The position numbers and the translations under genes were made by a program. A stretch of 51,909 bases of DNA, taken from positions 1 to 51,909 of the IMG/VR virus record IMGVR_UViG_3300009537_003043; one strand, 5' to 3'. This stretch comes from a virus (taxonomy: Duplodnaviria > Caudoviricetes). Every line of letters starts with the position of its first letter. Position 1 is the stretch's first letter. Shown piece after piece: positions 1-18,840 of the stretch. Under the pieces are notes generated by a model that searched no databases, was not told where the DNA came from, and was given only the letters and a program-made list of their open reading frames with translations.

Positions 1-348
1 GGCATTTCGCTGGCCACGGTGGGCGGCGAGTGGTGGCAGGCTCACGCCGGCAGGTTGTGGCGCGACGGGGAAAATTATACGGTGGCCGGCGCCGACCTGT
101 TGTTGCGGTTCCGGCGTCCGACCGTCTGGTCCGTGTTTGGGTTCGGCGTGTCAAATTGGGATCGCCGCACGGAGCGGCTTGGCTCAACCCAGGAGTTTCA
201 CATGTTGGTGCGCCTGGGCACGCAATTGGGTGATTTGCTGGCGTTTCTCTCACTTGACCATTGGAGTAACGGAAGTGCGGTGCTGAACACTCCGGAACCG
301 AATGGTGGCGAGGATTTCGCCGGCGCCGGAATCGGCTGGAGGTTTTGA
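1..348 (+). CDS. PagL-like lipid A 3-O-deacylase (outer-membrane beta-barrel), 5' partial
   Basis: Frame 1 is open from base 1; RLGSTQEF, HWSNG and PNGGEDF match the PagL pattern LGS-x-x-x-F / H-x-S-N / N-x-G-x-E(N); ends GIGWRF with a terminal Phe (beta-signal). Confidence 0.7.
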   Translation, partial: GISLATVGGEWWQAHAGRLWRDGENYTVAGADLLLRFRRPTVWSVFGFGVSNWDRRTERLGSTQEFHMLVRLGTQLGDLLAFLSLDHWSNGSAVLNTPEPNGGEDFAGAGIGWRF

Positions 349-554
349 TGAACACAATCCTAGTTTGGCTTTCCTGCTGTTTGATCCTCGTGGCTGCGTG
401 GTCTCGCTGGGAAAGCGAGGTATCCATGCTAGACCCTGTCCTGCTACTGCTGGGGGCCGTCTGGTGCCTGTCGGTGGCGCGGTATTTTCGGCCAGCGGCG
501 GAACGGCGGCGGAACATTCCGCGGTGGAGGCAGCGGGAGCACGACCCGCAATGA
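345..554 (+). CDS. Small membrane protein (2 hydrophobic segments, basic C-tail), lysis region
   Basis: ATGA overlap with the upstream stop; two hydrophobic stretches. Confidence 0.55.
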   Translation: MMNTILVWLSCCLILVAAWSRWESEVSMLDPVLLLLGAVWCLSVARYFRPAAERRRNIPRWRQREHDPQ

Positions 555-724
555 AAGCCGTGTTATGGGTTCTGCTGGCGCTGCTGGTGGCTTCCCTCGC
601 CATGTGGATGCAGGCGGAGCGGGGCATGTCCCGCTGGGATTACCGTGTTGTCTGCGAAAGGTACTGGGTGATTGCCTGGAATGAGGGCCGCGGAGAACCG
701 GAAATGGTGCGGGTTTGCAAATAA
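551..724 (+). CDS. Small N-anchored membrane protein
   Basis: ATGA overlap; MKAVLWVLLALLVASLAMW hydrophobic N-terminus. Confidence 0.55.
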   Translation: MKAVLWVLLALLVASLAMWMQAERGMSRWDYRVVCERYWVIAWNEGRGEPEMVRVCK

Positions 725-743
725 CCTCAGGAAAGGAAATGTG

Positions 744-1046
744 ATGAATTTACTGATGATGGTTGTCAAGGCCGTTGGCCCCGTCTTGGTCGGCCGGGCC
801 GCGCAGTCCCTCGACACCGAGCACGGCACCAGCGTTGTGCCCGGCGCGAAAGGGATGCTCACATCCAAAACCGCCGTGGGGATTCTCGTGGCAGTACTAC
901 CGCTGTTGTGGCGGGCGCTGGGGTGGGAGTTCGCGGAGGCGGAAACCCAGGCCATCGCCGAGCAACTGGTGCAGCTGGGCGGGCTGGCCCTGGCCCTCTA
1001 CGGGCGCATCGACGCGGGCCGCACCGGGACGCCAATGTTCAAGTGA
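744..1046 (+). CDS. Holin-like membrane protein
   Basis: SD aaagga; SKTAVGILVAVL and LGGLALALYGRI hydrophobic segments resembling a common phage holin-like family. Confidence 0.6.
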   Translation: MNLLMMVVKAVGPVLVGRAAQSLDTEHGTSVVPGAKGMLTSKTAVGILVAVLPLLWRALGWEFAEAETQAIAEQLVQLGGLALALYGRIDAGRTGTPMFK

Positions 1047-1076
1047 CCGGCCCCCTGCCGCCCGGCGGGCGCGATT

Positions 1077-1101
1077 GACCACGGCCTGGAGGTGTGGTTT
1101 T
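1077..1101 (+). terminator. Possible intrinsic terminator closing the late block
   Basis: Imperfect hairpin accac-g-gcct-gg-aggt-gtggt followed by T residues, between convergent genes. Confidence 0.35.
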
Positions 1102-1157
1102 AGGGCGCGTGGGTGCTCAATCTCCTGAACGGGGTCCCTGGTGGGGGATGATCTGGA

Positions 1158-1904
1158 CTAAAACAACTTTTCCTGCGCCAGTCGCCGGGCCGCCATTTCG
1201 CAGTAGCGCTCTTCGATTTCAATGCCAATGGCGCGGCGAGCGAGCGTTTTGGCCGCGACCAGCGTTGTTCCTGCGCCCGCGAAAGGATCAAGGACAAGAT
1301 CGGATGGTGCGGAGTGCAGCGAGATAAACAACTCCATGAGCGCAGGCGGCTTCGGCGTTGGGTGCCCGTCGGCCGACGGTTTGATGCCCGAAATGCGAAC
1401 AACGTTTGCCTGTGTGTGCCCCCCATACCATTTGCAGGCTGCACCCGGCTTTTCGCCAACAAGAATTAGCTCATAGTTCCGCCGATAATGCCAGCCCATT
1501 CCAAGCCCACCTTTATCCCACACCACGGCCTGTTTGAAGCCCACCGCTTCATCCAACCATAGCGACCACCGCGCGAATTGCGGGTCCGGCCCGCCGCCGC
1601 CGGCGCAGCAGCAGCAGCAGCAGCAGCCAGGTTTCAGAAGCCTTTTTGCCTCGCCAAACATCCAGAGCACCAGACCATTCGCCTCTGGCCCATCGTTTGC
1701 GATTGGCCGCGCATCGTTATCTGTGGTTTTTCTGATTCCGAGTGCTGATTCCCGCCGATGGGCAAGGTCACCGTTGTTGTTGTTGTGCCCGTAGGGAGGA
1801 TCGGTAAGAATCTGCTCGACACTGCTATCCGGCAGCCCCGGCAGCACGTCCCGGCAGTCCCCGTGGTAAATCGTGATCCCGGCGTGCTCGTAATATGGTT
1901 TCAT
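1158..1904 (-). CDS. DNA amino-methyltransferase (N4-C/N6-A, beta class)
   Basis: IYHGDC, TDPPYG, HPTPKP, VLDPFAGAGTT and IGIEIE motifs; start at MKPYY. Confidence 0.93.
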   Translation of the reverse strand: MKPYYEHAGITIYHGDCRDVLPGLPDSSVEQILTDPPYGHNNNNGDLAHRRESALGIRKTTDNDARPIANDGPEANGLVLWMFGEAKRLLKPGCCCCCCCAGGGGPDPQFARWSLWLDEAVGFKQAVVWDKGGLGMGWHYRRNYELILVGEKPGAACKWYGGHTQANVVRISGIKPSADGHPTPKPPALMELFISLHSAPSDLVLDPFAGAGTTLVAAKTLARRAIGIEIEERYCEMAARRLAQEKLF

Positions 1905-1911
1905 CGGGCTC

Positions 1912-2142
1912 CTAGAGCAGGCCCATCCCGCCCGGCACGGTGTATCCCGTGGCCGGATTGGCCGCGTAGGCCGTGGGCCTGGCCGGCATGGCGTCCGGCA
2001 GCCGTTCGATCTGCCCGCCCCGGGCAAGGAACGCGGCCACCGCCATCTCCACCTGCGCCTGCGTGGGCGGCGGAGTGCGGTAGCTGTTCACGAACGTGAG
2101 TTCCACGCGATTATCCTGCTGTCCCCGCTTTAACTTCGGCAT
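1912..2142 (-). CDS. SutA-like RNA-polymerase-binding domain protein
   Basis: SD aaggag; AVAAFLARGGQIERLP resembles the SutA core (xxEEFLxxGGxV). Confidence 0.55.
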   Translation of the reverse strand: MPKLKRGQQDNRVELTFVNSYRTPPPTQAQVEMAVAAFLARGGQIERLPDAMPARPTAYAANPATGYTVPGGMGLL

Positions 2143-2252
2143 TGGCTTCTCCTTGGTGAGGATTCCCCGCCGGGGCGCGCGCCGCCGCGCATCCTCTTTA
2201 TCCATGCGGATATAGTGCGCGATGATCGGGTGCGTGTAGATGTAGCGGGGCA

Positions 2253-3014
2253 TCAGTCCCCACACATTCCTGAATCGCAAAAGTTGTAGTCGTTTGGATC
2301 GGGATTTCCACGCGCCCATTCTACAACAGCCCGAATACCAACCGCGCCTTTGTGCCGTTTGGGGGAAAACATCACGCGGGGGTTGCCCTTGCTATTTATC
2401 CCAGCATCAGCCTCCATTCTTTCAATCTCAGCAATCCGTTTCTCTGGCAAATCAAGCAAGTCAGGTTTCGCGGCGTTCACACAAGGAAAACATTCTCGGC
2501 TGCGATGAGGAAGCGGGCGAAATGGGGTTTTAGCAAGGAGAGCGTCACGGTCCCATTGCTGGTGTCTGACAAGAGGCGCCCAAAGTGACCGCCCGCCGTG
2601 ATTTGCACTTTCTTCAATCCATTCTGGAAAGTTTGCGCGGCCTTGACTTTCAGCGCGACGGATTCCGACCATACAGGTTGCCTCTTTATCAGGATCGTGT
2701 CGGTCAAGCCATGTTAGCGCCGGAATGAGTTTAAGGTTTTCTGTGCAAAACTGATATTTCCTGCCCCCTCCGCGAGGCCATGCCTTTTTGCGAGCCAACA
2801 AATTGGCCATTCCCTCGCTCTCGGTTTGTGCCGTGCTAAATCCAATTGTCGCGGCCCACTTTTCACCCTTGGCAACCCTCATCGGCCATAAAGCATCAGC
2901 CCAGCCGGTGTCTGAGTACAGTACCGTGACCGCTGCTGGTGAACGTAAATTTTCATATGCCCATTGAATCAACGCAACACTATCGTTCCCGTAACTCGCA
3001 AAAAGTACGTACAT
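2253..3014 (-). CDS. PAPS-reductase family (PP-loop) protein with Cys clusters
   Basis: SYGNDS PP-loop, DTG, FCTENLK, GIRRAES, ECFPC, C-terminal CDSGMC; TGATG coupling to the upstream gene. Confidence 0.85.
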   Translation of the reverse strand: MYVLFASYGNDSVALIQWAYENLRSPAAVTVLYSDTGWADALWPMRVAKGEKWAATIGFSTAQTESEGMANLLARKKAWPRGGGRKYQFCTENLKLIPALTWLDRHDPDKEATCMVGIRRAESQGRANFPEWIEESANHGGRSLWAPLVRHQQWDRDALLAKTPFRPLPHRSRECFPCVNAAKPDLLDLPEKRIAEIERMEADAGINSKGNPRVMFSPKRHKGAVGIRAVVEWARGNPDPNDYNFCDSGMCGD

Positions 3015-4036
3015 CACCTCTCCATAATCGTCGGGATTCCCGCCGCAAACATCAGGCGCCGCCACGCTTCCGCCGCCGCCGGGGGGTAGACGCCGTTGCC
3101 TGCGACACGGATTTGAGCAGCCCGACGGGCCAGCCCATCAGCACCTCGCAAAACCGCGGGTTCAATACCAGGGTAGCGCCGGAGGTACTCGCTCCACCCT
3201 TCGAGGTCATCAGGTCCGGGTGGGCTCGGCAAAATTCCCCCACCTGTTCCGACAACGGGCGCGCGTTCCGGGCATGGGTTGTCTCTGACGCATGGATTGA
3301 CCGCCAATCCCGCGCTGTCAGGGCCGCACATCTTGCGGCTTGCGCCGGAAGCGGCTCCCCACCCGCTCCGAATTTCTGGTTCGGGCCGCCCTTTGCCTCG
3401 TCCGTTGCTCGAATCGACGCCCAGCGGTTCGCCGCCGTTTGCAGGTTCAGCCCGCCTTGCCGTCCTTGATTCCCCACCCCTCTTCCTGCCGCGGCCGTGA
3501 CGAGCGGCCAGCGCGAACCACCGCTTGCGAAGTTGTGAAGCCCCGCATTCCGCAGCGGATACAACGTCCCATCGGAGATCATACCCGACGCCGGCCACTT
3601 CGCGTTCAACGGCGGGGAGCCATTTTCGGATTCCGGGCCAGACGTTCTCAAGGAATAGGAGATCGGGCTGGATTTCTGCGGCCAGGCGCATGATCTGGAA
3701 GAAAAGGCGGCTCCGCTCTCCCTCCAGACCCGCGCGGCGGCTTGCCGTGCTGAGGTCCTGGCATGGGAATCCCGCCACGATGCAATCCACCGATCCACGC
3801 CAGGGTCGCCCGTCGAGGCCGTTGACATCCCCCTGGTAGATCGGCGCCCAGTCGAGCCAGCCCCAGTCAATCCCGCCACGGAGAACCGCAACTGCATCGG
3901 GGTCGATCTCACAGTAGGCGATGGGGCGGAGCCATGGGCGTAGTCCTGCATCCAGGCCGCCACCGCCCGATCCGATGCTGATGCTGGTAAGTCGGGGATC
4001 ATCCACATCTGTGTTCAAGGGTATCGGCCATTTCAC
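3014..4036 (-). CDS. C5-cytosine DNA methyltransferase, alpha part (motifs I-VIII and X)
   Basis: GSGGGGLDAG, YCEID, GFPCQDLS, LENV, QLRKRWF, AGNGV; the true start may be the GTG near 4006. Confidence 0.88.
   Translation of the reverse strand: MKWPIPLNTDVDDPRLTSISIGSGGGGLDAGLRPWLRPIAYCEIDPDAVAVLRGGIDWGWLDWAPIYQGDVNGLDGRPWRGSVDCIVAGFPCQDLSTASRRAGLEGERSRLFFQIMRLAAEIQPDLLFLENVWPGIRKWLPAVEREVAGVGYDLRWDVVSAAECGASQLRKRWFALAARHGRGRKRGGESRTARRAEPANGGEPLGVDSSNGRGKGRPEPEIRSGWGAASGASRKMCGPDSAGLAVNPCVRDNPCPERAPVVGTGGGILPSPPGPDDLEGWSEYLRRYPGIEPAVLRGADGLARRAAQIRVAGNGVYPPAAAEAWRRLMFAAGIPTIMER
3052..3828 (-). CDS. Overlapping alternative-frame C5-MTase beta part (TRD-like repeats plus motif IX); start uncertain
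   Basis: Long open frame nested in the MTase gene; WPASGMISDG, TARDWRS and LNPRFCEVLMGWP (motif IX-like, absent from the alpha frame). Confidence 0.7.
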   Translation of the reverse strand: MSTASTGDPGVDRWIASWRDSHARTSARQAAARVWRESGAAFSSRSCAWPQKSSPISYSLRTSGPESENGSPPLNAKWPASGMISDGTLYPLRNAGLHNFASGGSRWPLVTAAAGRGVGNQGRQGGLNLQTAANRWASIRATDEAKGGPNQKFGAGGEPLPAQAARCAALTARDWRSIHASETTHARNARPLSEQVGEFCRAHPDLMTSKGGASTSGATLVLNPRFCEVLMGWPVGLLKSVSQATASTPRRRRKRGGA

Positions 4037-4151
4037 GGCACAATTCTTCCTCTGTAATCGAGGGGTCCCGGGTGAGCAATTTCAAATTGAGTAGTTTTGC
4101 GCCCCCATCCGCTGGGAAAAGGGCACTCATCAAACGTTCTTTCTCGCTCAT
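3999..4151 (-). CDS. Hypothetical protein
   Basis: MSEKERL..., coupled to the upstream stop, SD gagggg. Confidence 0.5.
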   Translation of the reverse strand: MSEKERLMSALFPADGGAKLLNLKLLTRDPSITEEELCREMADTLEHRCG

Positions 4152-4600
4152 CACCCCTCTCCATTCATCGCTAGGAGGGGCCACAGCCGCTCTTTGTGGC
4201 GGGCCATGACCGCCATCGCGTACAGCATCCCCACACCTTTTGTGTAACGGGTGGGGCCGGCGTAGGGCGCCCGCGGCCCCTGGTTGTAGCAGTGGGCCAG
4301 CCGACTCACCCGCCAACCCCACCGAGCGCGGCATTGCCGCAGTATCTCCAGTGCCCATGCCCGGTTGACCCCCGGCTCCCACAGGTCGGCAATGCGTCCC
4401 CGGTACCCCGCCGCAATCGCTGACCATGCTTTGATCTGGCACCGGCCAATCTCCCCGTCGCGCCCCGGCGTGTTGTCGGGATCGGCCAAGCCCCGCGTCT
4501 CCCACGCATCACAGATAACATCGCGCAGGAGCGGAATGTCCGTCGCGCTCGCAGCCGATGGCCACATCAGCAGGGCCGCGAGGATGAGGAGGCGGGTCAT
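4151..4600 (-). CDS. Lytic transglycosylase (SLT-like) with signal peptide
   Basis: Sec-type signal ending ASA; catalytic E in AWET, GRCQI (GLMQ-like), YNQG (AYNAG-like). Confidence 0.8.
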   Translation of the reverse strand: MTRLLILAALLMWPSAASATDIPLLRDVICDAWETRGLADPDNTPGRDGEIGRCQIKAWSAIAAGYRGRIADLWEPGVNRAWALEILRQCRARWGWRVSRLAHCYNQGPRAPYAGPTRYTKGVGMLYAMAVMARHKERLWPLLAMNGEG

Positions 4601-4854
4601 GTGAGCCCATCCCCCTTGCGCCGCTGAATGTAGTAATCGAACGCCGCTTGCTGGAATGCCCCCAGGACGTAGGTGCGATTTTCCTGCACCCCAACGTTCC
4701 CGCTTCTTACTGTCCCGTCCTGCTCAAAAACCAAATACACGATGCTCCGCAACGCGCCGGATTTTGCCTGGGCCAACAATTCCTCCAGGCACTCCACGAG
4801 TTCGGGAATGGGCGCAGAGCGCACGGCTTCGAGGGATATTGGTTTGTCGGTCAT
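4597..4854 (-). CDS. Hypothetical protein
   Basis: ATGA-type coupling within the operon. Confidence 0.7.
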   Translation of the reverse strand: MTDKPISLEAVRSAPIPELVECLEELLAQAKSGALRSIVYLVFEQDGTVRSGNVGVQENRTYVLGAFQQAAFDYYIQRRKGDGLT

Positions 4855-5045
4855 GGCGTTCTCCTTAGGTCGGCCAGGGCGCGTGTTAAATCCATCGACG
4901 CACGCCGCAGTGCCCCGCCTTCGCGTGATCCAGAAATCGTCATGCGATTCTCCTCACTCTTCAACCGCTTCTCGTAGGCACGCACCCGGTCAATAAAACG
5001 GTGCGCCTCTTTTTTGGCTGTTTCAATCAAGTCGCGGTTCATCAT
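4851..5045 (-). CDS. Hypothetical protein
   Basis: SD aaggag; overlaps both neighbours by 4 nt. Confidence 0.7.
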   Translation of the reverse strand: MMNRDLIETAKKEAHRFIDRVRAYEKRLKSEENRMTISGSREGGALRRASMDLTRALADLRRTP

Positions 5046-5869
5046 TTCTCCTTCTTCGCAGCGAGGCAGCCGGGTTTGTGGGTTTCGGGGAACCCCGTTG
5101 TCCCATCCCATGAGGCCAAACACACACGGCAGAGCCAACTCCCAGCTACACGGTGAATGACGTATGCGCGATACGCCTCCAGCAGCGCGGCATTCTCGGC
5201 TTCAAGCTCCTTAACCCTTTTCGCATTGTCGCCTTGAGCGTGCAAGCGGCGCACCGCATCGCTCCACCAACGGTCTCGCTCATTGTAGGCGGCTTGCAGC
5301 GCCCGGTACGCCCGCGATTGACGCCGGGACTTTGCCCGAAGGGCCTTGGCCTCGGCCTCCAGTTTCAGGGCGCTTTTGGCTTCAATGTCGAATGCTTTTC
5401 TCCATGAATCAGCCTCAGCCTCCGCAGTATCGGCGCGAGCTTTCTCCTGCTCTCGCTCATCCATTGCGTACCCGTAGTCAGTCTGGGCCTGATCGTAGAT
5501 GTTTTGGAGGTCTGCCACAGTTTTTCTTAGCGCCCTGACATTATTTATCAGCTTCTTGATCCTGTGCTCGTATCCGTGGTCGTATCCACGCCACCAGCCG
5601 GGGCATGCGGCGTCCGTTCCGTCGAAAAGCGTGCCGGGGACAGGCTTGCCGTCCAGTTCCCCTTTGTATTCGCCGCGGCAGATGGAGCGAGCCCCCCGCT
5701 CCCCCGCCATCTTGTTCGCGATGATTTGGGCAATTTCTTCTGCTGTTGTAGTCTCCACCACAACCGCGCGAATGTGAGCAAGGGTAAGCGCCCCATCCAA
5801 ACGACTGCATATCAGTGCGCAGATTTCCCCCGCAGCTTCGCGGTCGGCTTTGGTTGGGCTGTGTTTCAC
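5042..5869 (-). CDS. Hypothetical coiled-coil protein with C-terminal CxxC...HxxxC zinc motif
   Basis: Operon coupling; heptad-rich middle; CRVC and HKPGC. Confidence 0.7.
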   Translation of the reverse strand: MKHSPTKADREAAGEICALICSRLDGALTLAHIRAVVVETTTAEEIAQIIANKMAGERGARSICRGEYKGELDGKPVPGTLFDGTDAACPGWWRGYDHGYEHRIKKLINNVRALRKTVADLQNIYDQAQTDYGYAMDEREQEKARADTAEAEADSWRKAFDIEAKSALKLEAEAKALRAKSRRQSRAYRALQAAYNERDRWWSDAVRRLHAQGDNAKRVKELEAENAALLEAYRAYVIHRVAGSWLCRVCLASWDGTTGFPETHKPGCLAAKKEK

Positions 5870-6165
5870 GCCTTTTCCTCCTGTTCATTGAGCCGCGCGG
5901 CTTCGGACCGGGCAGCGGCTTCGGGGATTGGAGCCCATCCCTCTAGTTTTCGATCCCATACCCACCACGACGCCACAGTTCCGACCGTTTCCGAGAGGTA
6001 GATTCTCGCCTCATACCTTTCCGGCTCTTCGATGATGCGGACGCGGGCGGACTTAGCGTTGTAGAGGTGGGCTGCTTTCAGCGCCATTTCTTGTGTTGAA
6101 TAATCCCGTGAGGTGATGTTGGGAGCCGTTACCCTCCACCGGATTTCGCCTTTTCCCTCGGTCAT
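5866..6165 (-). CDS. Hypothetical protein
   Basis: SD ggag; coupled to the next gene. Confidence 0.65.
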   Translation of the reverse strand: MTEGKGEIRWRVTAPNITSRDYSTQEMALKAAHLYNAKSARVRIIEEPERYEARIYLSETVGTVASWWVWDRKLEGWAPIPEAAARSEAARLNEQEEKA

Positions 6166-6199
6166 TTTTGCTCCAAGTCGTCAGAAAGAGTTTATGGGA

Positions 6200-6679
6200 T
6201 CAGCCCGCAGCACGCGCCACGGGCCAAATACAGTCATCTAAACGTTGATCTAGTGCGCGCTCGGCGGGCCAATAAACAAACTCGGCGGTATCGTCGCTGC
6301 CAACGATGCCGGAACGGCTACATTTTTCATGATGCTGAATATCGTATGGACCTACATTTACATTCCAGGCATATACCTCCCGCGCACATTCAAGGCACGT
6401 CCATGAGAGAATTTCCCCTCGGTAGGAATATGAGGCTGTTATTCCTGCTGGCACTCTATATCTGAAGGCAGGCGGTGGGTCTGCTTCGGGGCCAGTTAAC
6501 AAGCGCAGAACAATTGCACCGGGTATTCCCAATATAGCCACGGGAATTAAAACCGGCCCCCACAGTAGCCCAGCGGCTAGGCGTGCGAGTGGATACTGTG
6601 CAGCATCTTCCCAATTAACCAGCAGGGACATGGCCGCTCCGAACCACACCAAACCCGCCGCAATCATCCACTCAGTCAT
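6200..6679 (-). CDS. Membrane protein with C-terminal zinc-ribbon-like motif
   Basis: SD ggagggg; 2 hydrophobic segments; CLEC...HHEKC. Confidence 0.65.
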   Translation of the reverse strand: MTEWMIAAGLVWFGAAMSLLVNWEDAAQYPLARLAAGLLWGPVLIPVAILGIPGAIVLRLLTGPEADPPPAFRYRVPAGITASYSYRGEILSWTCLECAREVYAWNVNVGPYDIQHHEKCSRSGIVGSDDTAEFVYWPAERALDQRLDDCIWPVARAAG

Positions 6680-6891
6680 TTCCCCTCCCTTCGGTTGGGG
6701 TTGGTGCGACGTTCTGTACGATTCCCTATGTCTTGCGGCCAAACGCGCCGCTCGCAATGCACGCCGTCACAAGGAGACGGCGGTTGCGGGCGCTCATCAC
6801 TGTGGTGAGGCCACACCTTGGGCCTCGTACAGAGACACCAGTCTGAAAATTCATGGGTTGGCCGCCCCGCCGGGCATTTGTGGTCGGTCAT
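6676..6891 (-). CDS. Small Cys/His-rich hypothetical protein
   Basis: MTDHKC..., 4-nt overlaps on both sides. Confidence 0.5.
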   Translation of the reverse strand: MTDHKCPAGRPTHEFSDWCLCTRPKVWPHHSDERPQPPSPCDGVHCERRVWPQDIGNRTERRTNPNRREGK

Positions 6892-7283
6892 GCCCTCACC
6901 TCCGGATAATCGTCGTGCGTTCCCCGGGGAGCGGCCCTCCTGGCCCCACATCGCACGCAGGTGCCATCCACCCAGCGGTGGTACCGTCCCCGCTTCTTCC
7001 CGCGGTGGGCGGCGGCCATCTTCGCCCGCGCCTCGGGGGTGTGCTTCTTCCCGCGTTGGGCGGCGGAAACCTTCGCCCGCGTCTCGGGGGTGTGAGACCG
7101 CGGCTGACTGACGGCCGCATCGGCCGGGCGGTAGCAGCCCGGCGTCTCGCACAGCAGCCCGGGCGGCGCCTCCTGCCAGCAGTGCCGACCCGGCGTCTCC
7201 CGCTCCACCTCCGCCCGGTGCCGCACGCACAGCACCAGGGTCAGGATGGCCTCGCGGGGAACCTGTTTCAGCGTCGCGCCCAT
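6888..7283 (-). CDS. NUMOD3-motif DNA-binding protein
   Basis: Two 17-aa repeats HTPETRAKVSAAQRGKK and HTPEARAKMAAAHRGKK, flanked by Cys pairs. Confidence 0.7.
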   Translation of the reverse strand: MGATLKQVPREAILTLVLCVRHRAEVERETPGRHCWQEAPPGLLCETPGCYRPADAAVSQPRSHTPETRAKVSAAQRGKKHTPEARAKMAAAHRGKKRGRYHRWVDGTCVRCGARRAAPRGTHDDYPEVRA

Positions 7284-7286
7284 GCC

Positions 7287-8219
7287 TCACTCCGTCAGGT
7301 GGCGGGGCATCTCCCGCACGCGCAGGTCCGCGGGCCACTCGGCCATGTCGCCGCCCTTGGAGTGGCGGAACTTGGGCTGCGCGGGCTCCCGGTCGTTCAC
7401 CAGCGCACCCGTGTCTGCCCAGGGGTCGATGGGATTGGCCCCAAGCTGTTTGACAAAACAGGCCACGCCAGCGGCCTTGCAGTCTGCGATGGTGTTGCGC
7501 GCCCAGTGCAAATTGAAGGGCCGCGCATCGGGGCCGGACTCGCCGCCCATCACGATCCAGTCGAGGCGCTGCGGGCCGGGCCGAAGCGCATCGAGCCCCC
7601 CTTTGGCGTGAGCGACAAGCCGCGTAAAATCCACCGGCCCCAGGGCGGGCTCATAGGACACCCACCGTATGGCCGCCGGGGTATCCAACAGCGCCGGAAT
7701 CCGCTCGTCCGCCGTGGCCTGGTCCTCCACCGAGACCCCAAGCCAGACGTTGGGGAGGGGATTGTAGTAGATTCCGCCGATACCGTTAGGGTCGGCGGCG
7801 TCAATAGCCGCTCCCTGCATCGACGTCGTTAAATACTTCCGCATCCGCCCCGCCCGCTTGGTGAGCACCTGGTAGGTGTGGTGGGGCGTCAGCGCCATCA
7901 CGGCGAAAATGCGGTCGATCCAGGCGTCCGGCACGGACGGGTGGAACAGGTCGCTCATGCTGTTGACAAACACCCGCCGGGGCTTCCGCCAGCGCAGGGG
8001 CACCTCCAGGTCTTTCTCGACCAGCCGCACCTCGCCCGTCCACACCGGACGCCCGTTTATCTTCTTCACCAGCCCCTCGTAGGGCTGACCCGGCCCGCTG
8101 AACCGCCATGCCTGCCGCATTGCGTAGCAGTTCCGGCACCCTTCGCTCTCCAGCGAGCAGCCCCGAATCGGATTCCACACGCTCTCCGTCCACTCGATCT
8201 TGCTCTTGCTTGCGGTCAT
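7287..8219 (-). CDS. DUF5131 / phage Gp37-Gp68 family protein
   Basis: SKIEWTE, WNPIRGC-x6-C-x2-CYA, FVNSMSDLFH, LTKR, NVWLGVSVEDQ, GGESG, FVKQLG. Confidence 0.93.
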   Translation of the reverse strand: MTASKSKIEWTESVWNPIRGCSLESEGCRNCYAMRQAWRFSGPGQPYEGLVKKINGRPVWTGEVRLVEKDLEVPLRWRKPRRVFVNSMSDLFHPSVPDAWIDRIFAVMALTPHHTYQVLTKRAGRMRKYLTTSMQGAAIDAADPNGIGGIYYNPLPNVWLGVSVEDQATADERIPALLDTPAAIRWVSYEPALGPVDFTRLVAHAKGGLDALRPGPQRLDWIVMGGESGPDARPFNLHWARNTIADCKAAGVACFVKQLGANPIDPWADTGALVNDREPAQPKFRHSKGGDMAEWPADLRVREMPRHLTE

Positions 8220-8263
8220 TGCTCGCCTCAATCGTTATTTGCTGTCAGCCTCCCCGCAGGGGA

Positions 8264-8297
8264 TGCCATCCCTGGCAATGGACTCGTCCCTGAGTCC
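8264..8297 (-). promoter_or_regulatory. Two tandem CsrA/RsmA-type binding hairpins
   Basis: Minus strand reads GGACUC-AGGGAC-GAGUCC and UGCC-AGGGAU-GGCA. Confidence 0.65.
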
Positions 8298-8317
8298 TCC
8301 TGCTCAACGCCGCAGGG

Positions 8318-8965
8318 CTATCGGCTAAAATCTTTATATTTGACCTTCGTAATGATTCGCCTGCCCATCCGATCAAATAGGGTTTTCTCCGGGCGCAGTA
8401 CCAAACCCTCAGCATCCCGAGGTCGAACCGAAGCCTCAGACGCGAACCCGTTTTCCGCTAGGTCAATAGCCGCTGCCAAGGGGCCACAGCACACAAGCGG
8501 CGCGACGGGTATGTGTAGTTTGTCGCCAACATCCATCACGTTATCCCATTCCAGCCAAATGTTTTTACTAGAGCCCACCAGTACATCAAACAATATGAAT
8601 CCCGGATCATCCCGGTAATCGCCGCCACCTTTCTGAATCTTAGGCCCGTAACCCTCACCGTACAAAACTGCCCCGTCAGGAAAAATGGGAGCAAACAAGT
8701 CGGGCCTAAAATTCTCGTGCAACACAGCCAGAAGGAAGGGCGGAAGATTGGCGTTGTCCGTGCGCCCTTTGATCGTCACCACTGGTGATAAACCAGGCAT
8801 CCACTCGATGCGAATGTTCATGCCGTCAATCTTCTCCGTCCAAAGCCAGTCCAGACTAGCCAAATAACCAAACTCCGGGCGAGACCACCGGCCCTCCAGA
8901 AACGTCTTGTGATGGTTTTCAGGGTCGCGCAAGTACACGCTGTCAATCTTCGGATATATAGACAT
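8318..8965 (-). CDS. RNA ligase (Rnl2-like nucleotidyltransferase domain)
   Basis: EKIDGMN, YGEGYG, FDV, EGLVLRP, ITKVK ligase motifs. Confidence 0.85.
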   Translation of the reverse strand: MSIYPKIDSVYLRDPENHHKTFLEGRWSRPEFGYLASLDWLWTEKIDGMNIRIEWMPGLSPVVTIKGRTDNANLPPFLLAVLHENFRPDLFAPIFPDGAVLYGEGYGPKIQKGGGDYRDDPGFILFDVLVGSSKNIWLEWDNVMDVGDKLHIPVAPLVCCGPLAAAIDLAENGFASEASVRPRDAEGLVLRPEKTLFDRMGRRIITKVKYKDFSR

Positions 8966-8995
8966 AATGCCTCCATATATATTTTGGGCGTGTAT

Positions 8996-10381
8996 TTAAA
9001 ACGGTTCCGGCTCCGCGGCGTCGAGCAACTTGTTAATCATGTCCACCCCTTCCTGAACGGCGTCGCGCTGTTTTTTGGTGAACTTGATCGTTTTGATTTT
9101 GACCTTCTCCCGGGCCTCGTTGCGGTCTTTGGGTGCCGCCGCCTGGTACTCGGCCAGCACCTCTTGCACCGCAGGGTCGGTCTCATCCTGCACAGCCGGG
9201 TCGGGAGAGGGGGCGCCGTCCGTGGCGAGCTGCCCGGCGTCCTCTGCCGGCGCTTCCGGTGCCGGCGCTCGTTCCTTGAGCGCGTCCTTTTTCCCCTCCA
9301 GCCGTTCCCACTGCTCGGGCGTGCAGCGGGCCTTGAGTTGTTTGGCGTGGGCTTTCCACCACTCGGGGCCTTTGCCTTTGTCGAACGCGGCGGTCATGTC
9401 CGTAATGTACTCGTCCAGTTTGGCCGGGAGCAATTCGCCGGTGCCCTCCGGCAGGTCGCTCTTGCTCGGGAACGGGCGCTGCTGTGCGCGGACGGGGGGT
9501 TGGCCTGGCGCCGGAGTGTGAGATTGTGCGTCCGGGTAGAACTCCGCGGCCACGCCCTCCACATCATCGTCGGGAAACACGCCGGCGGACGAGGAAGTCA
9601 GAAGTTTCCGGGTCTGCTCCTCGATTTGCGCGATCTGGAATCCGGCCTGCGCTTGTTGCGTGGCGTGCTCCAGGGCTGCTTGCCTCAACCCTTCCATGGT
9701 GCCGCGGAACTCCAAACCCACGACGTAGATGGTTTGCTGGCGCCCATCAGGATCGGCCACTTTCTTTGGCGTCACCACCAGTTCCAGGGGTATCCCCGCA
9801 ATCCGCCCGCCAGCCGCGCGGTGAATGAACATCAGGCTCCCAAACAGGGCGTCGTGGGAATTGAAGCTGGTGGTGCGAAACTTCCAGGTCCCGCCAAGTC
9901 CCGCGGCGCCGTCTATCAGTACGGACAGGCTGGCGTTGATTTTGCATTTCGGGTCGGTCTTTGTGGCCTTGAAATCTCGCTCGATGCGCTCACACGGGCA
10001 GGCGCATGTGGAATATGACCCTTCTGCGCCGATCCGCTGAGCCTCCACACCGTTACCGCGGCACCACACGGTTTTCCCCAAATAGGCGGCGTAACTACCC
10101 TGGAAATTCAACTCCAGGTCATCAAACAGCAGTCGCACGGGGATTCGCGTGAGGTGATCGGCCTCCTGGCCCGTGGCCTTTGCCACCTCCTGCATAAGCG
10201 CCGCGTCCGGTAGAAAATTATCGTCGGCGTCCTTCTCCATCGTCGTGATGATGAAGTGGTCGTATTTCTCCGGCGCCTGGAACTCCACGCCTTGCTTGCT
10301 CTTGCGGACGGCCCCTTTGCCGCCAATCTTGATTTTCCCGCTTTCGCGCAGGGACGGGGGCCTATTCAGAATGAGAGACAT
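8996..10381 (-). CDS. Gp3-like (recombination-directionality-factor-like) recombination protein
   Basis: GKIKIGGK, WCRGNG, CPC, CK...L, WKFRTTSFNS; acidic tail; paired with an exonuclease. Confidence 0.7.
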   Translation of the reverse strand: MSLILNRPPSLRESGKIKIGGKGAVRKSKQGVEFQAPEKYDHFIITTMEKDADDNFLPDAALMQEVAKATGQEADHLTRIPVRLLFDDLELNFQGSYAAYLGKTVWCRGNGVEAQRIGAEGSYSTCACPCERIERDFKATKTDPKCKINASLSVLIDGAAGLGGTWKFRTTSFNSHDALFGSLMFIHRAAGGRIAGIPLELVVTPKKVADPDGRQQTIYVVGLEFRGTMEGLRQAALEHATQQAQAGFQIAQIEEQTRKLLTSSSAGVFPDDDVEGVAAEFYPDAQSHTPAPGQPPVRAQQRPFPSKSDLPEGTGELLPAKLDEYITDMTAAFDKGKGPEWWKAHAKQLKARCTPEQWERLEGKKDALKERAPAPEAPAEDAGQLATDGAPSPDPAVQDETDPAVQEVLAEYQAAAPKDRNEAREKVKIKTIKFTKKQRDAVQEGVDMINKLLDAAEPEPF

Positions 10382-11255
10382 TGGACTCCTTAGCTTTAGT
10401 GTGTGCTTGAAACTGCGAGCACCAGGGATTTACCGGGCAGTAATCCTCACAACGCGTGCGCTCGCCCGGCCTGACTTCGATGGTGATTCCGGGGCCGGTG
10501 TGGCCTTCCTTGGCCGCCCATTGTTGGGCCTCCTCCATGGAGAACAGTACCCGGAGCGCGGACTTGCGCCCGGCCTTTTTCACGGCGTACTTGGTGGGCT
10601 TCTCCCATATTTCCGCCGGCGTGCATTCCGGGAGATCAGCGTCGGGCACTTCCTCAGCAGCGACCAGGGCCTCCACCCGCTCCGCTATCCACGCCCGACG
10701 CCTGGCTTGCGGCCAGAGTTCCAGCGGAACCACGACCACCTGAGTCTGCGGATATTTCCCGTCCGCGCGGGCCTTGGACTTTGACCAGTCGCGCAGCATG
10801 ACTACGCACTGGATTTTTTCGACCGGGAAACCATGCTGCTCGTACAATTCCGCGTACACGTTCAACTGCTGCGTCCATTCCTCTATGCGGCTCCGGTACA
10901 CGATAGTCCAGGCCGAGGTCGATTTGTAATCCGTGATGAGTCGCGTGGCCTCGTACAAATCGGTCGCGCCGCTGATCGTCCGCCCGGCGATTCGCATAAA
11001 CAGGCGTTCCTCCGTCAGGGCGTTGTCTGGGTTGGACTGTTCCAGGATGGAGTGAAGAGCCGTCCCGAACAGGCTCCAGATGCGGTCGGCGACGTCCTCC
11101 ACGACCTCATCATCATGGCGGCGGTTCAAAATCGTGACCCGCAGAGGAGCCGTCAGGTCGGTCGCGGAATAATCCGAGTCACCGCGGGTGTATTTGTCGT
11201 TGAGCACCGCCCGGTAGAACGTGTCGGGCAGCCCGAGCTTGTTGGTGAGTTTCAT
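10362..11255 (-). CDS. PD-(D/E)XK RecB/Cas4-like exonuclease
   Basis: GTALH, SGATDL, DYKST, QLNVY, RCEDYC...WC. Confidence 0.85.
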   Translation of the reverse strand: MKLTNKLGLPDTFYRAVLNDKYTRGDSDYSATDLTAPLRVTILNRRHDDEVVEDVADRIWSLFGTALHSILEQSNPDNALTEERLFMRIAGRTISGATDLYEATRLITDYKSTSAWTIVYRSRIEEWTQQLNVYAELYEQHGFPVEKIQCVVMLRDWSKSKARADGKYPQTQVVVVPLELWPQARRRAWIAERVEALVAAEEVPDADLPECTPAEIWEKPTKYAVKKAGRKSALRVLFSMEEAQQWAAKEGHTGPGITIEVRPGERTRCEDYCPVNPWCSQFQAHTKAKESNVSHSE

Positions 11256-11257
11256 TT

Positions 11258-11839
11258 TTACTCCAGATCGTTAGGGAGCCCGCCCGTGTCGCGGAGGGCT
11301 TGTTTCAGGACGGCCTCAGCTTCCGGCAGAAAGTATTTATCACGTACCACCGCCACCGCCGCAACGCGCAGGGGGTCGCATATCATCTGCGCGCTTGACA
11401 GGTGAAAGCCGTTCGCCGTAAGCATGATTCCGCATTCCGGGCACCGCTGGTGTTGGTGCTTCTCGCTCACTTCAGCGGACCGCTGGTGTTGGTGCTTCTC
11501 GCTCACTTCAGCGGAAGGCGGCACCGCCGGCACATAAGGCATGGCCTCGGCGGTGATGTGGGCACCCGCCGGAAACTCCAATTCCACGCGCGTATGATCG
11601 CCAACCTGGCCGGTGACGCGAACCCTGCTGACGTGCAGTTCCTTTCCGTTCAACCGCACCTTGCCCTCCTGGGCCACCAGCGGTAGATCAATCTCGAACT
11701 GGCGCTGGGGCCGATCCTCCCCGCATTCCGGGCACCGCTGGTGCTTCTCCCGCAGGCCGCGGGCTTGATCGTCCGGGAACTCGTCGGCGGCGAGCACAGC
11801 ATCCAGGCGGTTCAGCGCCGCTTTTTCATGGTCAGGCAT
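11258..11839 (-). CDS. Hypothetical protein with duplicated RCPECG and a 12-aa tandem repeat
   Basis: SD aggagg; internal DNA repeats. Confidence 0.65.
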   Translation of the reverse strand: MPDHEKAALNRLDAVLAADEFPDDQARGLREKHQRCPECGEDRPQRQFEIDLPLVAQEGKVRLNGKELHVSRVRVTGQVGDHTRVELEFPAGAHITAEAMPYVPAVPPSAEVSEKHQHQRSAEVSEKHQHQRCPECGIMLTANGFHLSSAQMICDPLRVAAVAVVRDKYFLPEAEAVLKQALRDTGGLPNDLE

Positions 11840-11887
11840 GATTCCTCCTTCGGTCGAGTACGTGTTGGGGCAGCGGCGGGCGGTTCA

Positions 11888-12178
11888 TCATGCGGTGTCC
11901 GAAATGCCGGGCGAGTGCGAGTTCAGCGGAAGGGACGCGCCCGCCTTCAGCAGCCCCTGGTCGTGGTCCGATTCCTCGGCCGTCAGGTCCTTCTCCTTGA
12001 TGCCGCGTACTAGGCGGATGTCGGCCTTGATGTCCGCGATCTTCTTCTCCAGGTGCGTGCGCAGCGCGCTCTTGGCCTGCGGAAGCGTCGCGTAGATTCC
12101 GCTGATCGGAATGTCCGTCTCGACGCCACGTTCGGTGAGGCGGATGGTACGGGAACGAAACGTAACCAGGTAATTCAT
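11888..12178 (-). CDS. Hypothetical protein, first gene of the leftward block
   Basis: SD aagga; lies downstream of the predicted promoter. Confidence 0.65.
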   Translation of the reverse strand: MNYLVTFRSRTIRLTERGVETDIPISGIYATLPQAKSALRTHLEKKIADIKADIRLVRGIKEKDLTAEESDHDQGLLKAGASLPLNSHSPGISDTA

Positions 12179-12240
12179 GGTGGTTCCTTCTGTGGGGTTT
12201 GCCGTATGGCTTGACAGCCTGGTGTTGATGTGACACCCTC

Positions 12241-12269
12241 AAACTACAACCCTGTGGGGCGCTTGTCAA
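12241..12269 (-). promoter_or_regulatory. Sigma70-like leftward promoter in a divergent switch region
   Basis: TTGACA-17-TAGTTT on the minus strand; opposing TTGACA at 12211; inverted ggtgttga/tcaacacc at 12221 and 12266. Confidence 0.6.
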
Positions 12270-12288
12270 CACCTTTTTGCAGAGCCTG

Positions 12289-12501
12289 ATGAACATCTAC
12301 CCTGACACAACGCCAGAGCGGCTCAGCCTAGTACAGAACCACGCGGACAACCTCGGCATCAGCCTGTGGCGCCTGCTCAAGATGGCCGGCATGACCAAGC
12401 AAGCCAGCACCCGCTGGCGCACCGGGCGCTGCAAACCGAGCAATCTGGCCTTGCACCGGCTGCTCTCCATCACCGCCGCCGACGTGGAGCGCAGCGCATG
12501 A
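12289..12501 (+). CDS. Cro-like HTH protein
   Basis: 70 aa; LLKMAGMTKQASTRWRTGRCKP; first gene of the rightward block. Confidence 0.65.
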   Translation: MNIYPDTTPERLSLVQNHADNLGISLWRLLKMAGMTKQASTRWRTGRCKPSNLALHRLLSITAADVERSA

Positions 12502-12971
12502 CCGCCTTGAAACCCGACCAGGTGACGGTGTTGGTGGACACGCGGGAACAACGACCCTACGACTTCCCCACCATGCGCGTGCAGCCCGCCACCCTGACCG
12601 CCGGAGACTACTCTGTGCGTGGGATGGAAAACGATCTGGCGGTGGAGCGGAAGGAACTGTCAGACCTCATATCCTGCATCGGGCCCGGCCGGGAACGCTT
12701 CGAGCGCGAGATGGCGCGGCTGCGGGGGTATCAGCATCGCATCGTGATCGTCGAGGCTGACTGGTACGCCGTGCGCTCAGGCGCCTACCGGAGCGCTCTG
12801 AACCCGCTGGCGGCTACGCACTCCATCCTGTCCTGGCAGGCCCACTACCGCGTGCCGTTTCTGTTCGCGGGCGACCGGGAGGCCGGCGAGGCGGCTGCGG
12901 CGTACTTCCTGTTCACGGCGGCCAAGCACGCATGGCAACGCGGAGAAGCGTTCAGGGAAGCGCTGGCGTAA
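12498..12971 (+). CDS. ERCC4-domain nuclease
   Basis: VDTREQ, GDYS, VERKELSDL. Confidence 0.9.
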   Translation: MTALKPDQVTVLVDTREQRPYDFPTMRVQPATLTAGDYSVRGMENDLAVERKELSDLISCIGPGRERFEREMARLRGYQHRIVIVEADWYAVRSGAYRSALNPLAATHSILSWQAHYRVPFLFAGDREAGEAAAAYFLFTAAKHAWQRGEAFREALA

Positions 12972-13113
12972 TTCCCCACGGCCCGTCGTTTTTTGTTTTG
13001 ATCTTGCAGCCGGGGTTGTGATACGCCGGATTTGCGACCGCAGTCCCACCGATCTTCAGCAGCCCCACGGGCGCAGGCTCCCTCTCCTGCGGTCGCTCCC
13101 CCGTGGGGTTGCC

Positions 13114-13129
13114 CATCCATGGATGGATG
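13114..13129 (+). promoter_or_regulatory. CsrA-type hairpin over the ribosome-binding site of the csrA-like gene
   Basis: CAUCC-AUGGAU-GGAUG ends 2 nt before the ATG at 13132. Confidence 0.65.
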
Positions 13130-13131
13130 AA

Positions 13132-13317
13132 ATGCTGATCCTGACCCTGGGCCCTTCTGACACCATTTACATTGAGCACGACGGAGAAGTTGTCGAGATC
13201 ACGCGGACCATGCACCAGCGGCTCGCTTTCCACGCCCCCGACTCGTTCCGGATCGAGCGGCGTCCTACTGATGATGGCCTGCCGTCCGCGACTTTCCAGA
13301 GCCCGGAGGCCACATGA
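13132..13317 (+). CDS. CsrA/RsmA-like RNA-binding protein (divergent)
   Basis: 61 aa; MLILT start, TIYI, and RLAFHAPDSFRIER aligning with CsrA RIGVNAPKEVSVHR. Confidence 0.7.
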   Translation: MLILTLGPSDTIYIEHDGEVVEITRTMHQRLAFHAPDSFRIERRPTDDGLPSATFQSPEAT

Positions 13318-15836: not shown

Positions 15837-15856
15837 CTCTTCACGAGGAGAACGCA

Positions 15857-16453
15857 ATGTCAGAGCGCACCACGAAGAAAAATCGACAACACGCCGAGGA
15901 GCGCAAAAACACGATGTCCCTGGAACTCAACGCCGACCTGCCGATGCTGGACATCAAGGCCGAGCCCGTCACCAGCGACGAACTGGGCAGCATGGCGTTC
16001 ATGCTGCAGCGCAATCTGGCTCAGGGCACCTTCGACGAAAATGATGCCGATCACATCCAGGCCACGATCCGGGCACTGGAGACGGCACAGCAGGGCTCAC
16101 AGGTCTCGCTAGGGCAATGGCTCGCCCCGGTTGTGGCCCGCGGGGAGGGCGTGGACGAGGTCAAAAGTTTCCAGTGCTTCGCGCTCGGCCGCCGGTTGGA
16201 GCGGGGTGGCATGGTCAAGTTGCGGGCCGACGACGTGAGCCTCATCAAAAAGATCGTCGGCGCGAACAAGCAGCACGTCCGCTGGGTCAAGGACCTGGTG
16301 ATTGGCATTCTCGACCCGAACAGCATCGAGGGCGAAATGGAGCGCGAGGTTCTGGAGGAAATCACGGGCGAGATGCACCGGTTGTGGCGCGAAGAGCGCG
16401 GATCGGCGAGCGACGGCGATGGAGCCGTCGCACACGCGGCCGGGCCTCCATGA
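15857..16453 (+). CDS. Hypothetical protein
   Basis: SD gaggag; genome-typical codon use. Confidence 0.7.
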
Positions 16454-16469
16454 TGTTTCCCACGATGTT

Positions 16470-16758
16470 CCTCACTGAAAGGCGCTTCGGTAGCGCGCTC
16501 CAGTTCTTCGGGGCGCTCGCGCAGCACCTGGAAGAAGGCCACAATGTCGCCGTCCAGGTCGTTCAGCACCTCGAAATCACTGGGTGGCTTCTGGAGCAGC
16601 ACGCTCGCCGCTCCCATGAAGGGCTCCACGTAGCACTCGTGGGGCGGCAGATGGGAAATGATCCACGGGGCAAGGCGCCACTTGCCGCCGCGGTAGCGTA
16701 GCGCCGGGCGCTCAATAGAATGCGTTGCTTTCACGTCCGAACCCTTTTTCTCAGTCAT
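16470..16758 (-). pseudogene. Truncated Dam-like (D12 class) adenine methyltransferase
   Basis: [17 protein letters not shown] and EVLNDLD present; no DPPY half; the frame runs on into the antisense of 15857..16453. Confidence 0.75.
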
Positions 16759-17477
16759 GGTGTGCTCCTGTCGTAGCGTGTGAGAATCCGCCGCACCTGT
16801 TCACGGTGCCACGTTTCCCTCCGGCGGGGCCTGGCCGTGGCGTTGAGCCGGCGCACCACATCCGCAATGGTAGCACCGTCCGCCCGCCACGCGGCCATCC
16901 GCGCGATTACCGATTGCTCGGCCGCGTCCTGTCGTAGCGTCTTGGGGCCACTCGGGTCGCCGTTGATCGGCGCCCAGCGCCAGCCGTAGGGGGCTCGGCC
17001 GTTGATCTGCCGCCCCCCGGCCTGCTCGCGCTTGTAGGCCAGGACGTGCCGGATGCGCGCGCCCGACCGCTGGGATTCGAGTTGCGCCAACGCGGCCATC
17101 AACGTGCAGATAAACTGCCCCGTCGGCGTGGTCGTGTCTACGGCCTCCCGGATCAGATGCACCGAGACGCCCCGCTCTTGCGCAAGCTGGAAAAACGTCA
17201 CGGCGTCCACGGTGGAGCGAAACAGCCGGTCCAGGGCCGTGGCGACCACATGCTGCACCTGGCCGGCGCGCACCATGGACACCAGCCGTTGCGCTTCCGG
17301 GCGGCCGGGCAGGCGCGTGCCGCTGATTCCCTCATCGGCCAGAACCAGGGGCACGCCCAACTCCCGCAGCGCGCAGTAACGCTCGATGGCCTGCCGCTGA
17401 TCCGGCAGGCTCAGGCCGTCGCGCGCCTGCTCCTCGCGGGACACGCGCGCGTAGCCGAGGGTCGGGGGGGCGGTCAT
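16755..17477 (-). CDS. Serine recombinase (catalytic plus recombinase DNA-binding domain)
   Basis: YARVS, DEGISG, LDRLFRS, DTTTPTG, APYGW. Confidence 0.92.
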
Positions 17478-17665
17478 GGGGCCATCTGCATTCCCCTGCG
17501 CGCCCGCGCCCCGGCGATGTCCAATTGCCGGCGCAGCCCACGTGGGGCTTTTCGCAGACGTACCGTGTGGCCGTCGCTTGCTTGCGTTACTACCATCACG
17601 GCGGCGCATCCTGACGGCACAGGCCCGCTTATCTTCACAACATCCCCTGGCGCAAAGTAGTACAT
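17474..17665 (-). CDS. Hypothetical protein
   Basis: SD ggagggg; ATGA overlap with the recombinase gene. Confidence 0.55.
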   Translation of the reverse strand: MYYFAPGDVVKISGPVPSGCAAVMVVTQASDGHTVRLRKAPRGLRRQLDIAGARARRGMQMAP

Positions 17666-17667
17666 GG

Positions 17668-17970: not shown

Positions 17971-17974
17971 CGGC

Positions 17975-18388: not shown

Positions 18389-18421
18389 AAGGCTACCTCC
18401 GTTGCAGGTTGATCGGGGATG

Positions 18422-18652: not shown

Positions 18653-18840
18653 GGGGTTTCCCCTTTCGCCTTGGCGATGGCGGCGGCGGCTTTTTCGACC
18701 GCCAAAGGTAGCGGGTACGGGCTCATAATCAGGCAATTTTCAGCCCACTCCTGCAACCCCTCCAACGCCGCCATCAGGTCCGCGTTCATCTCGCGCACGC
18801 GGGCGAGTTCCGCAAAAACGTCCGTGCCTGGCTTTTCCAT
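18649..18840 (-). CDS. Hypothetical protein (DLMAALE...AAIAKA type)
   Basis: SD ggagggg; pattern common in small phage proteins. Confidence 0.65.
   Translation of the reverse strand: MEKPGTDVFAELARVREMNADLMAALEGLQEWAENCLIMSPYPLPLAVEKAAAAIAKAKGETP

Follow-up and report, generated by a model that had tools for sequence, protein, structure and literature searches.

The window, by which we mean the complete IMG/VR virus record (51,909 bp), opens with 348 bases that very probably form the 3´ three-quarters of a PagL-family enzyme gene carried by the phage. As the best explanation of the sequence, we propose that this gene belongs to a late operon of the plus strand, where it is translationally coupled to the gene of a holin-like protein with two transmembrane domains (TMDs). 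Neither PagL enzymes nor phage-borne outer-membrane barrels are new; a PagL-type enzyme within a late or lysis operon of a phage has, as far as we searched, apparently not been described in print. The full-text literature search (main texts, mostly open-access) turned up neither a phage PagL nor a lysis cassette containing a lipid A deacylase. Automatic database labels for phage PagL do exist: the clusters of ESM Atlas nearest to the predicted protein are PagL clusters, one of them with Uroviricota among its few labelled members. An article on an EHEC "lipid A deacylase" (PMC6863877) was considered as a phage precedent and set aside, because it concerns the chromosomal LpxR.

Sequence, relatives and predicted fold of the PagL-like protein

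Starting at base 1, frame 1 reads through to the TGA at 346-348 and specifies 115 residues with no internal stop. It contains the motifs LGSTQEF (residues 60-66), HWSN (87-90), NGGE (101-104) and a terminal WRF (113-115), the last of which places a Phe at the C-terminus. The ORF matches Pfam PagL (PF09411) at E 3.1e-6 with 27.8 bits, against a curated cut-off of 23, and the alignment puts its residues 11-114 on positions 18-136 of the 136 positions of the profile. PagL is the sole Pfam family found for the ORF at E <= 1; NCBIfam and PHROGs return no family for it. A six-frame PF09411 search of both phage records (the window and the second carrier presented below) gave no candidate, whereas hmmscan of the translated ORFs passes the cut-off in both. 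We read the six-frame miss as a first-pass filter overlooking divergent family members.

Relatives of the protein are few. A HMMER pass over 1,835,955,588 representative proteins returned 20 of them at E <= 1e-3, including 3 at E <= 1e-10; the clade is rare (20 matches in 1.84 billion representatives). They measure 127-236 aa, most carry N-terminal signal peptides, and the closest of them (P0001) shares 44% identity with the ORF. Together with the fragment of the window itself, these relatives make up the 21 rows of alignment A1. Pfam PagL is matched at E <= 0.01 by 14/21 rows and no other family is; in PHROGs, 0/21 members match any family. Three positions, H87, S89 and N101, are identical in 21/21 rows, and N90 in 18/21. 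The acid is E104 in 16/21 rows and D105 in the remaining 5, which leaves one or the other in 21/21. According to PMC4402001, the active site of PagL combines a Ser-His-Glu triad and a conserved oxyanion-hole Asn. The corresponding residues, assigned from motif conservation, are all present in the ORF as H87, S89, N90 and E104.

With A1 as alignment, AlphaFold2 predicts a barrel of 7 strands for the ORF (mean pLDDT 96.7, pTM 0.86). The best match of this model in VIA-align is PagL of P. aeruginosa, 2erv_A, with Z 15.3 and rmsd 1.6 A over 111/115 residues (chain residues 15-150). Foldseek against PDB likewise ranks 2erv first (prob 1.00, E 9.9e-3), and it gives no match at E <= 0.001. The best rows in BFVD are generic cyanophage OMP-like barrels, all of them weak (best E 9.6e-3, rmsd 7.3 A). 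Other eight-stranded barrels reach Z 12-13 in VIA-align (OprF N-domain 13.2, OmpA 12.3), which means that PagL cannot be told from OmpA-like barrels by its fold only. The name PagL holds because fold, profile and motif are taken together.

A preliminary description of this DNA had called the ORF PagL-like on the basis of the four motifs, which indeed occur as it described them, and had suggested a profile search and a structure prediction. Both point to the same family: the profile match lies above the curated cut-off, and the predicted model is a PagL-type outer-membrane beta-barrel with 2erv on top. The proposed identity is thus borne out by profile, by fold and by the invariance of the His and Ser residues in the family.

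It is doubtful, in our estimate, that a PagL fold is present here with another substrate or with no catalysis, for instance in an esterase of outer-membrane phospholipids or lipoproteins, or in a structural protein that merely retained the motif. The clade does stand far from characterised PagLs: identity between the ORF and 2erv is 14-17%, and sequence searches of PDB (phmmer, profile) do not reach 2erv. Furthermore, 7/21 members miss the Pfam PagL model at E <= 0.01 and 5/21 have no Glu at position 104. Nevertheless, the invariant H87, S89 and N101, the nearly invariant N90 and the acid at 104/105 in every member argue for a conserved hydrolase site, and the backbone follows that of PagL at the low rmsd given above.

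Late-arm context in the window and in a second phage

The record is classed "linear" and has no end repeats; its CheckV completeness estimate is 100%. Two opposed arms can be distinguished. The minus-strand arm (1158..21575) holds genes with family support, among them three DNA methyltransferases, a PAPS-reductase-like gene, an exonuclease and a 284-aa serine recombinase. The plus-strand arm occupies 21574..51909 and then 1..1046. It starts at about 21.6 kb, with terminase at 25636 and the major head protein at 30685. Bases 1..1046 also lie on the plus strand and run head-on into the minus-strand arm. The simplest interpretation takes them as the end of the late arm, the record having been cut open within it. 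The two ends of the record are likely to be neighbours in the genome. A promoter and terminator scan of 1..2500 yielded nothing informative, and an exact 40-base pattern from the start of the window had 0 matches in viral contigs.

Table 1. Features surrounding the PagL-like gene in the window and in the second phage (L003). Window features are listed in the order that results if the two ends of the record adjoin.
Record	Feature	Position	Strand	Remarks
Window	Repeat-rich tail fibre, 1042 aa	47940..51068	+	ORF directly upstream of endolysin; repeat units common to L003 tail fibre
Window	Endolysin, 172 aa, without TM or SAR segment	51161..51679	+	phrog_465 "endolysin", E 6.6e-20
Window	Small protein, 64-67 aa, N-terminal hydrophobic segment and charged helical tail	51663..51866	+	Probable start ATG 51672; overlaps endolysin end
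Window	Start of ORF cut by 3´ end of record; candidate 5´ end of PagL-like gene	51866..51909	+	Sequence observed; assignment to PagL presumed
Window	5´-truncated gene of PagL-like outer-membrane lipid A deacylase	1..348	+	115 codons and TGA; barrel strands 2-8
Window	Holin-like protein, 68 aa, hydrophobic segments 1-21 and 25-45, basic C-terminus	348..554	+	Class II holin-like architecture
Window	57-aa protein, one N-terminal hydrophobic segment, without lipobox Cys	551..724	+	Start overlaps previous stop (ATGA, 551-554)
Window	100-aa membrane protein, last gene of plus-strand late arm	744..1046	+	Hydrophobic segment 37-61
L003	Tail fibre	5701..9408	same strand as PagL-like gene	
L003	176-aa ORF with LAGC lipobox	9468..9998	+	Directly upstream of PagL-like gene; no family match
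L003	PagL-like gene (P0003)	10001..10483	same strand	Pfam PagL 25.8 bits; 37% identity to window gene
L003	Two small zinc-ribbon-like ORFs			Between PagL-like gene and secreted 148-aa protein
L003	Secreted 148-aa protein	11405..11851	+	After zinc-ribbon-like ORFs
L003	133-aa membrane ORF			Between secreted 148-aa protein and amidase endolysin
L003	Amidase endolysin	12373..12810	same strand	phrog_822, E 3.9e-35

The extent of the truncation can be estimated from homologues. In P0001, P0002 and P0003, the position equivalent to window residue 1 comes after 36-46 residues (HMMER coordinates). The model of P0003, a full-length phage homologue, consists of a signal helix (2-27) and 8 strands (pLDDT 91.8), and the first strand of the window copy corresponds to its strand 2; the window copy has 7 strands and no signal peptide. 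The preceding residues in the homologues imply that signal peptide, strand 1 and loop 1 of the window copy lie off the record.

A candidate beginning lies at the opposite end of the record. The ORF starting at 51866 has an ATG that overlaps the previous stop (TGATG), a GAGG 6 nt upstream, and 14 codons plus 2 nt up to the last base. A direct join of the two ends without overlap was rejected as a source of the whole PagL gene, as the end ORF enters frame 2. With the ends overlapped by 2 nt (GG) the frame is kept, yet this adds 14 residues against the 36-46 of the homologues and gives a signal-less, seven-stranded product; such a join was rejected as the whole gene as well. We infer that the two cut ORFs (51866.. 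and ..348) are parts of one gene, with about 70-100 nt or more missing between the ends.

Alternatively, the fragment might be a dead remnant or an assembly artefact. The ends would then join directly and the true gene would have neither signal peptide nor strand 1, or else it would have no link to the lysis genes. The overlapping join, which is in frame and adds just 14 residues, would be in line with such a situation, and so would the fact that IMG/VR found no end repeats. We regard it as very improbable nonetheless. The fragment has no internal stop, conservation in the family is strong and the model is near-perfect. The ribosome-binding context is good and the stop/start overlap with the next gene is intact. 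Moreover, the plus-strand arm would in that case open with an incomplete gene that has no promoter.

Returning to a single interrupted gene in the late arm, its stop codon overlaps the start of the next gene (TGATG, 346-350). The whole order would be tail fibre, endolysin, 64-67-aa TM coiled-coil protein, PagL-like protein, 68-aa two-TMD protein, 57-aa protein and 100-aa membrane protein; the part endolysin - TM protein - PagL-like holds only on condition that the two ends of the record are neighbours. The endolysin has no Pfam match and no hydrophobic segment. The ORF with TM segment and coiled coil has weak matches alone (FtsL_2 E 0.005, phrog_3534 E 0.003). No family at threshold is found for ORF 348..554, or for any other of the small membrane proteins, in Pfam, NCBIfam or PHROGs, and for ORF 744..1046 the holin profiles stay below cut-off (Phage_holin_1 E 0.23, Phage_holin_10 E 0.84). 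From their architecture, the small membrane proteins near the PagL-like gene may be holins.

Spanins were looked for as well. A lipobox scan of all six frames of the record produced 3 matches, all off-frame or antisense and none in the cassette region. The Rz family (PF03245) has no match in the window record or in the L003 record, the latter being 56% complete, and no spanin PHROG occurs among the cassette ORFs. The 64-67-aa TM coiled-coil protein appears too short for a typical i-spanin. A spanin too divergent for recognition, or one encoded in the missing stretch, is conceivable.

The neighbourhood agrees in most respects with the preliminary description. The neighbours it listed (endolysin, TM protein, two TM proteins, holin-like protein) are found as described. 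It had seen no lipobox-bearing o-spanin, and the six-frame scan reveals no plausible one. It had also remarked that no signal peptide is visible and that the 5´ end lies on the contig junction; the full-length homologues account for this by some 36-46 N-terminal residues that are off the record. Its statement that the gene is embedded in the lysis cassette stands on the downstream side, where stop and start codons overlap with the holin-like gene. On the upstream side, the link to the endolysin crosses the ends of the record and is presumptive.

Base composition gives a further view of the gene. GC and GC3 of the PagL-like fragment are 0.621 and 0.733, and those of the neighbouring endolysin and TM genes are 0.586-0.624 and 0.724-0.775. 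The GC3 of structural genes, 0.89-0.93, is above that of the PagL-like gene, the endolysin and the next two genes. The gene resembles its neighbours and hence does not have the look of a recent insert with a composition of its own.

Among the other carriers of relatives, three contigs are phage-sized (P0003, 40,182 bp; P0004, 47,717 bp; P0010, 50,582 bp). P0017 and P0019 are on 35,927 bp, one relative is on 8,679 bp and the remaining 14 are on contigs shorter than 5 kb. Within one 90% cluster, the MAGs of origin bear two distinct taxonomic labels, as would be expected of misbinned mobile DNA. By tblastn, the PagL-like fragment and the relatives P0010 and P0004 have no match in GenBank phages, nor has the major capsid protein, which points to an uncultured phage lineage.

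No other contig bearing the window sequence turned up in viral or metagenome contigs. Back-translated patterns of the window protein had 0 matches in viral contigs, and the same result was obtained there for P0019, P0010 and P0004 (0 each) and for the endolysin (0). Patterns of alignment A2 were confirmed in 0/23 candidate stretches in viral contigs, 0/53 in metagenome contigs and 0/39 in genome contigs; those of alignment A4, in 0/26 in genome contigs. These scans of genome contigs covered 185,579 species genomes and, at their limited sensitivity, found no clade member. A word-index protein search had 0 matches. One metagenome locus (L004; 1/45, window-protein pattern) was examined as a phage carrier and rejected, since its PagL-like gene, of 356 aa, is bacterial and has ordinary chromosomal surroundings.

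The relative P0003 was located on an IMG/VR viral record (L003, 56% complete), and this phage offers the second readable context. Here the genes are tightly packed on one strand, and the PagL-like gene follows the tail fibre. It lies 1.9 kb upstream of the amidase endolysin and is not adjacent to it. For the 176-aa lipobox protein encoded directly before the PagL-like gene, a role as exclusion lipoprotein or as unusual partner in outer-membrane lysis is conceivable. Over a 20-kb stretch the two phages have, besides the tail-fibre repeats, three gene pairs in common: the PagL-like gene (37%), the secreted 148-aa protein (40%) and a D12 methyltransferase. As these three pairs are all, the placement between tail fibre and lysis genes is not just a matter of close kinship, with two cases only to compare.

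Possible roles at the outer membrane

We suggest, with a probability of roughly 40%, that the PagL-family enzyme is made late, exported, and deacylates lipid A, weakening the outer membrane at lysis as a helper of spanins or a substitute for them. The presumed sequence of events is as follows. The pre-protein would be synthesized late in infection, exported by Sec and inserted into the outer membrane by BAM, like the full-length homologues that carry signal peptides. Lipid A would then be deacylated during the late period. The packing of LPS would become looser, and the outer membrane would fail once holin and endolysin have removed the wall. The enzyme would in this manner assist or replace the spanins, which were found in neither of the two carrier phage records.

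Three lines of earlier work support such a mechanism, by analogy only. Firstly, about 15% of phages have no spanins, and phiKT uses another outer-membrane disruptor, according to a preprint (bioRxiv 10.1101/515445). Secondly, the LysB protein of mycobacteriophages, as PMC5707550 presents it, is a lysis-cassette esterase acting on the outer layer. Thirdly, lipid A deacylation driven by PagL alters outer-membrane behaviour by vesiculation in Salmonella (PMC4958258). On the opposite side, living bacteria tolerate 3-O-deacylation and Salmonella PagL is latent in the membrane (PMC4402001), so deacylation alone may not breach the outer membrane. It also counts against a lysis role that, of the two phages with readable context, L003 has its gene away from the endolysin.

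The late-operon position suits exclusion functions equally well. It is possible, if rather unlikely, that the same enzyme serves surface remodelling, as the product of a conversion or exclusion gene comparable to those for outer-membrane proteins near the tail and lysis genes of lambda. Acting on lipid A or LPS packing late in infection or in lysogens, the enzyme would prevent superinfection by other phages, hold progeny off debris and vesicles, or alter the host surface. The gene comes after the tail fibre in both phages, and this site is a classic one for accessory genes such as lom and bor of lambda. The lipobox protein directly upstream in L003 is a possible exclusion lipoprotein, and the 284-aa serine recombinase of the window makes lysogeny possible. 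Phages moreover carry small outer-membrane barrels without lysis roles, e.g. the cyanophage OMP-like proteins in BFVD, and cells tolerate lipid A deacylation well (PMC4402001). What speaks against remodelling is the organization of the gene itself. It shows no promoter or terminator of its own, is coupled translationally to the gene that follows, and has the composition of its neighbours, in contrast to a typical self-contained moron. A tyrosine integrase was not found in the record, and the recombinase is small. Finally, a change deep in lipid A does not seem an obvious way to mask a phage receptor. Both roles put forward in the preliminary description, spanin substitute and LPS remodelling for superinfection exclusion, remain plausible candidates.

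Comparison with known systems helps to specify the proposed role at lysis. With P. aeruginosa PagL, a lipid A 3-O-deacylase (2erv, PF09411), the window protein shares a small antiparallel outer-membrane barrel, with H-x-S-N and the downstream acid at the same end of the barrel. Unlike it, the window gene is phage-borne, stands in a late/lysis operon, belongs to a rare clade, encodes a protein of 14-17% identity to 2erv, and has its first ~36-46 residues off the record. LysB, a mycolyl-arabinogalactan esterase, would resemble the PagL-like protein, whose lysis role is a proposed one, as a lipid esterase encoded with holin and endolysin that attacks an outer lipid layer and lets lysis run to completion (PMC5707550). 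It offers the nearest analogy to the way in which the PagL-like gene may work. The folds of the two are unrelated, LysB being a soluble alpha/beta hydrolase, and substrate and host envelope differ as well.

Spanins (Rz/Rz1 of lambda) and the disruptin gp28 of phiKT would share with the PagL-like protein the slot of outer-membrane disruption, encoded beside holin and endolysin (bioRxiv 10.1101/515445). The PagL-like protein differs from them: it has neither a lipobox nor a periplasm-spanning coiled coil, nor is it a cationic peptide, and its action would be that of an enzyme within the outer membrane. Cyanophage OMP-like barrels from BFVD and Lom of lambda are similar in that they are phage-carried eight-stranded outer-membrane barrels near tail genes. 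Lom is a small phage-encoded outer-membrane barrel. These proteins are without the PagL motif, whereas the window ORF has PagL as its sole Pfam family.

How phages without spanins pass the outer membrane is only partly answered, with one alternative known, the cationic peptide. Tentatively, the PagL-like barrel may be the outer-membrane lysis step of a spanin-less phage lineage, a third kind of factor beside spanins and disruptin, and a Gram-negative counterpart of LysB. If this is true, spanin-less phages would have an enzymatic solution in the form of a lipid A esterase encoded within a late/lysis operon. If the role is exclusion or surface conversion, phages would edit lipid A itself. In addition, a compact and divergent PagL clade may be useful for LPS engineering.

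Other features of the two phages

The 1042-aa tail fibre of the window (47940..51068) comprises roughly a dozen units in tandem, ~70-75 aa in length, each with a terminal T-G-T-H-T-like motif. The same unit of ~70-75 aa recurs in the tail fibre of the otherwise distant L003 phage (5701..9408), with ~50% identity over ~65 aa.

The secreted protein common to both phages has 148-149 aa and a signal-peptide-like N-terminus. It is encoded at 4151..4600 on the minus strand of the window and at 11405..11851 on the plus strand of L003, with 40% identity between the copies, and it matches no Pfam or PHROG family.

The serine recombinase of 284 aa (16755..17609, minus strand) matches Resolvase at E 1.1e-32, phrog_95 "integrase" at E 1.9e-50 and phrog_125 "DNA invertase" at E 5.6e-34. 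It is the only recombinase seen in the record, where no tyrosine integrase (PF00589) was found. That it represents one part of a split large integrase was rejected, the next ORF being a D12 methyltransferase.

Three classes of DNA methyltransferase (N6_N4, C-5 cytosine and D12 adenine) are encoded on the minus strand at 1158..4036 and 16051..16758, and the PAPS-reductase-like gene (PF01507) scores 23.2 bits against a cut-off of 22.5 bits. This set suggests heavy DNA modification against host restriction. Within the N6/N4 DNA methyltransferase gene (1158..1904, minus strand; PF01555, E 5.5e-28), a run of GCA/GCT-type triplets around 1600..1625 is read as seven consecutive Cys, and it could be a slippage-prone tract.
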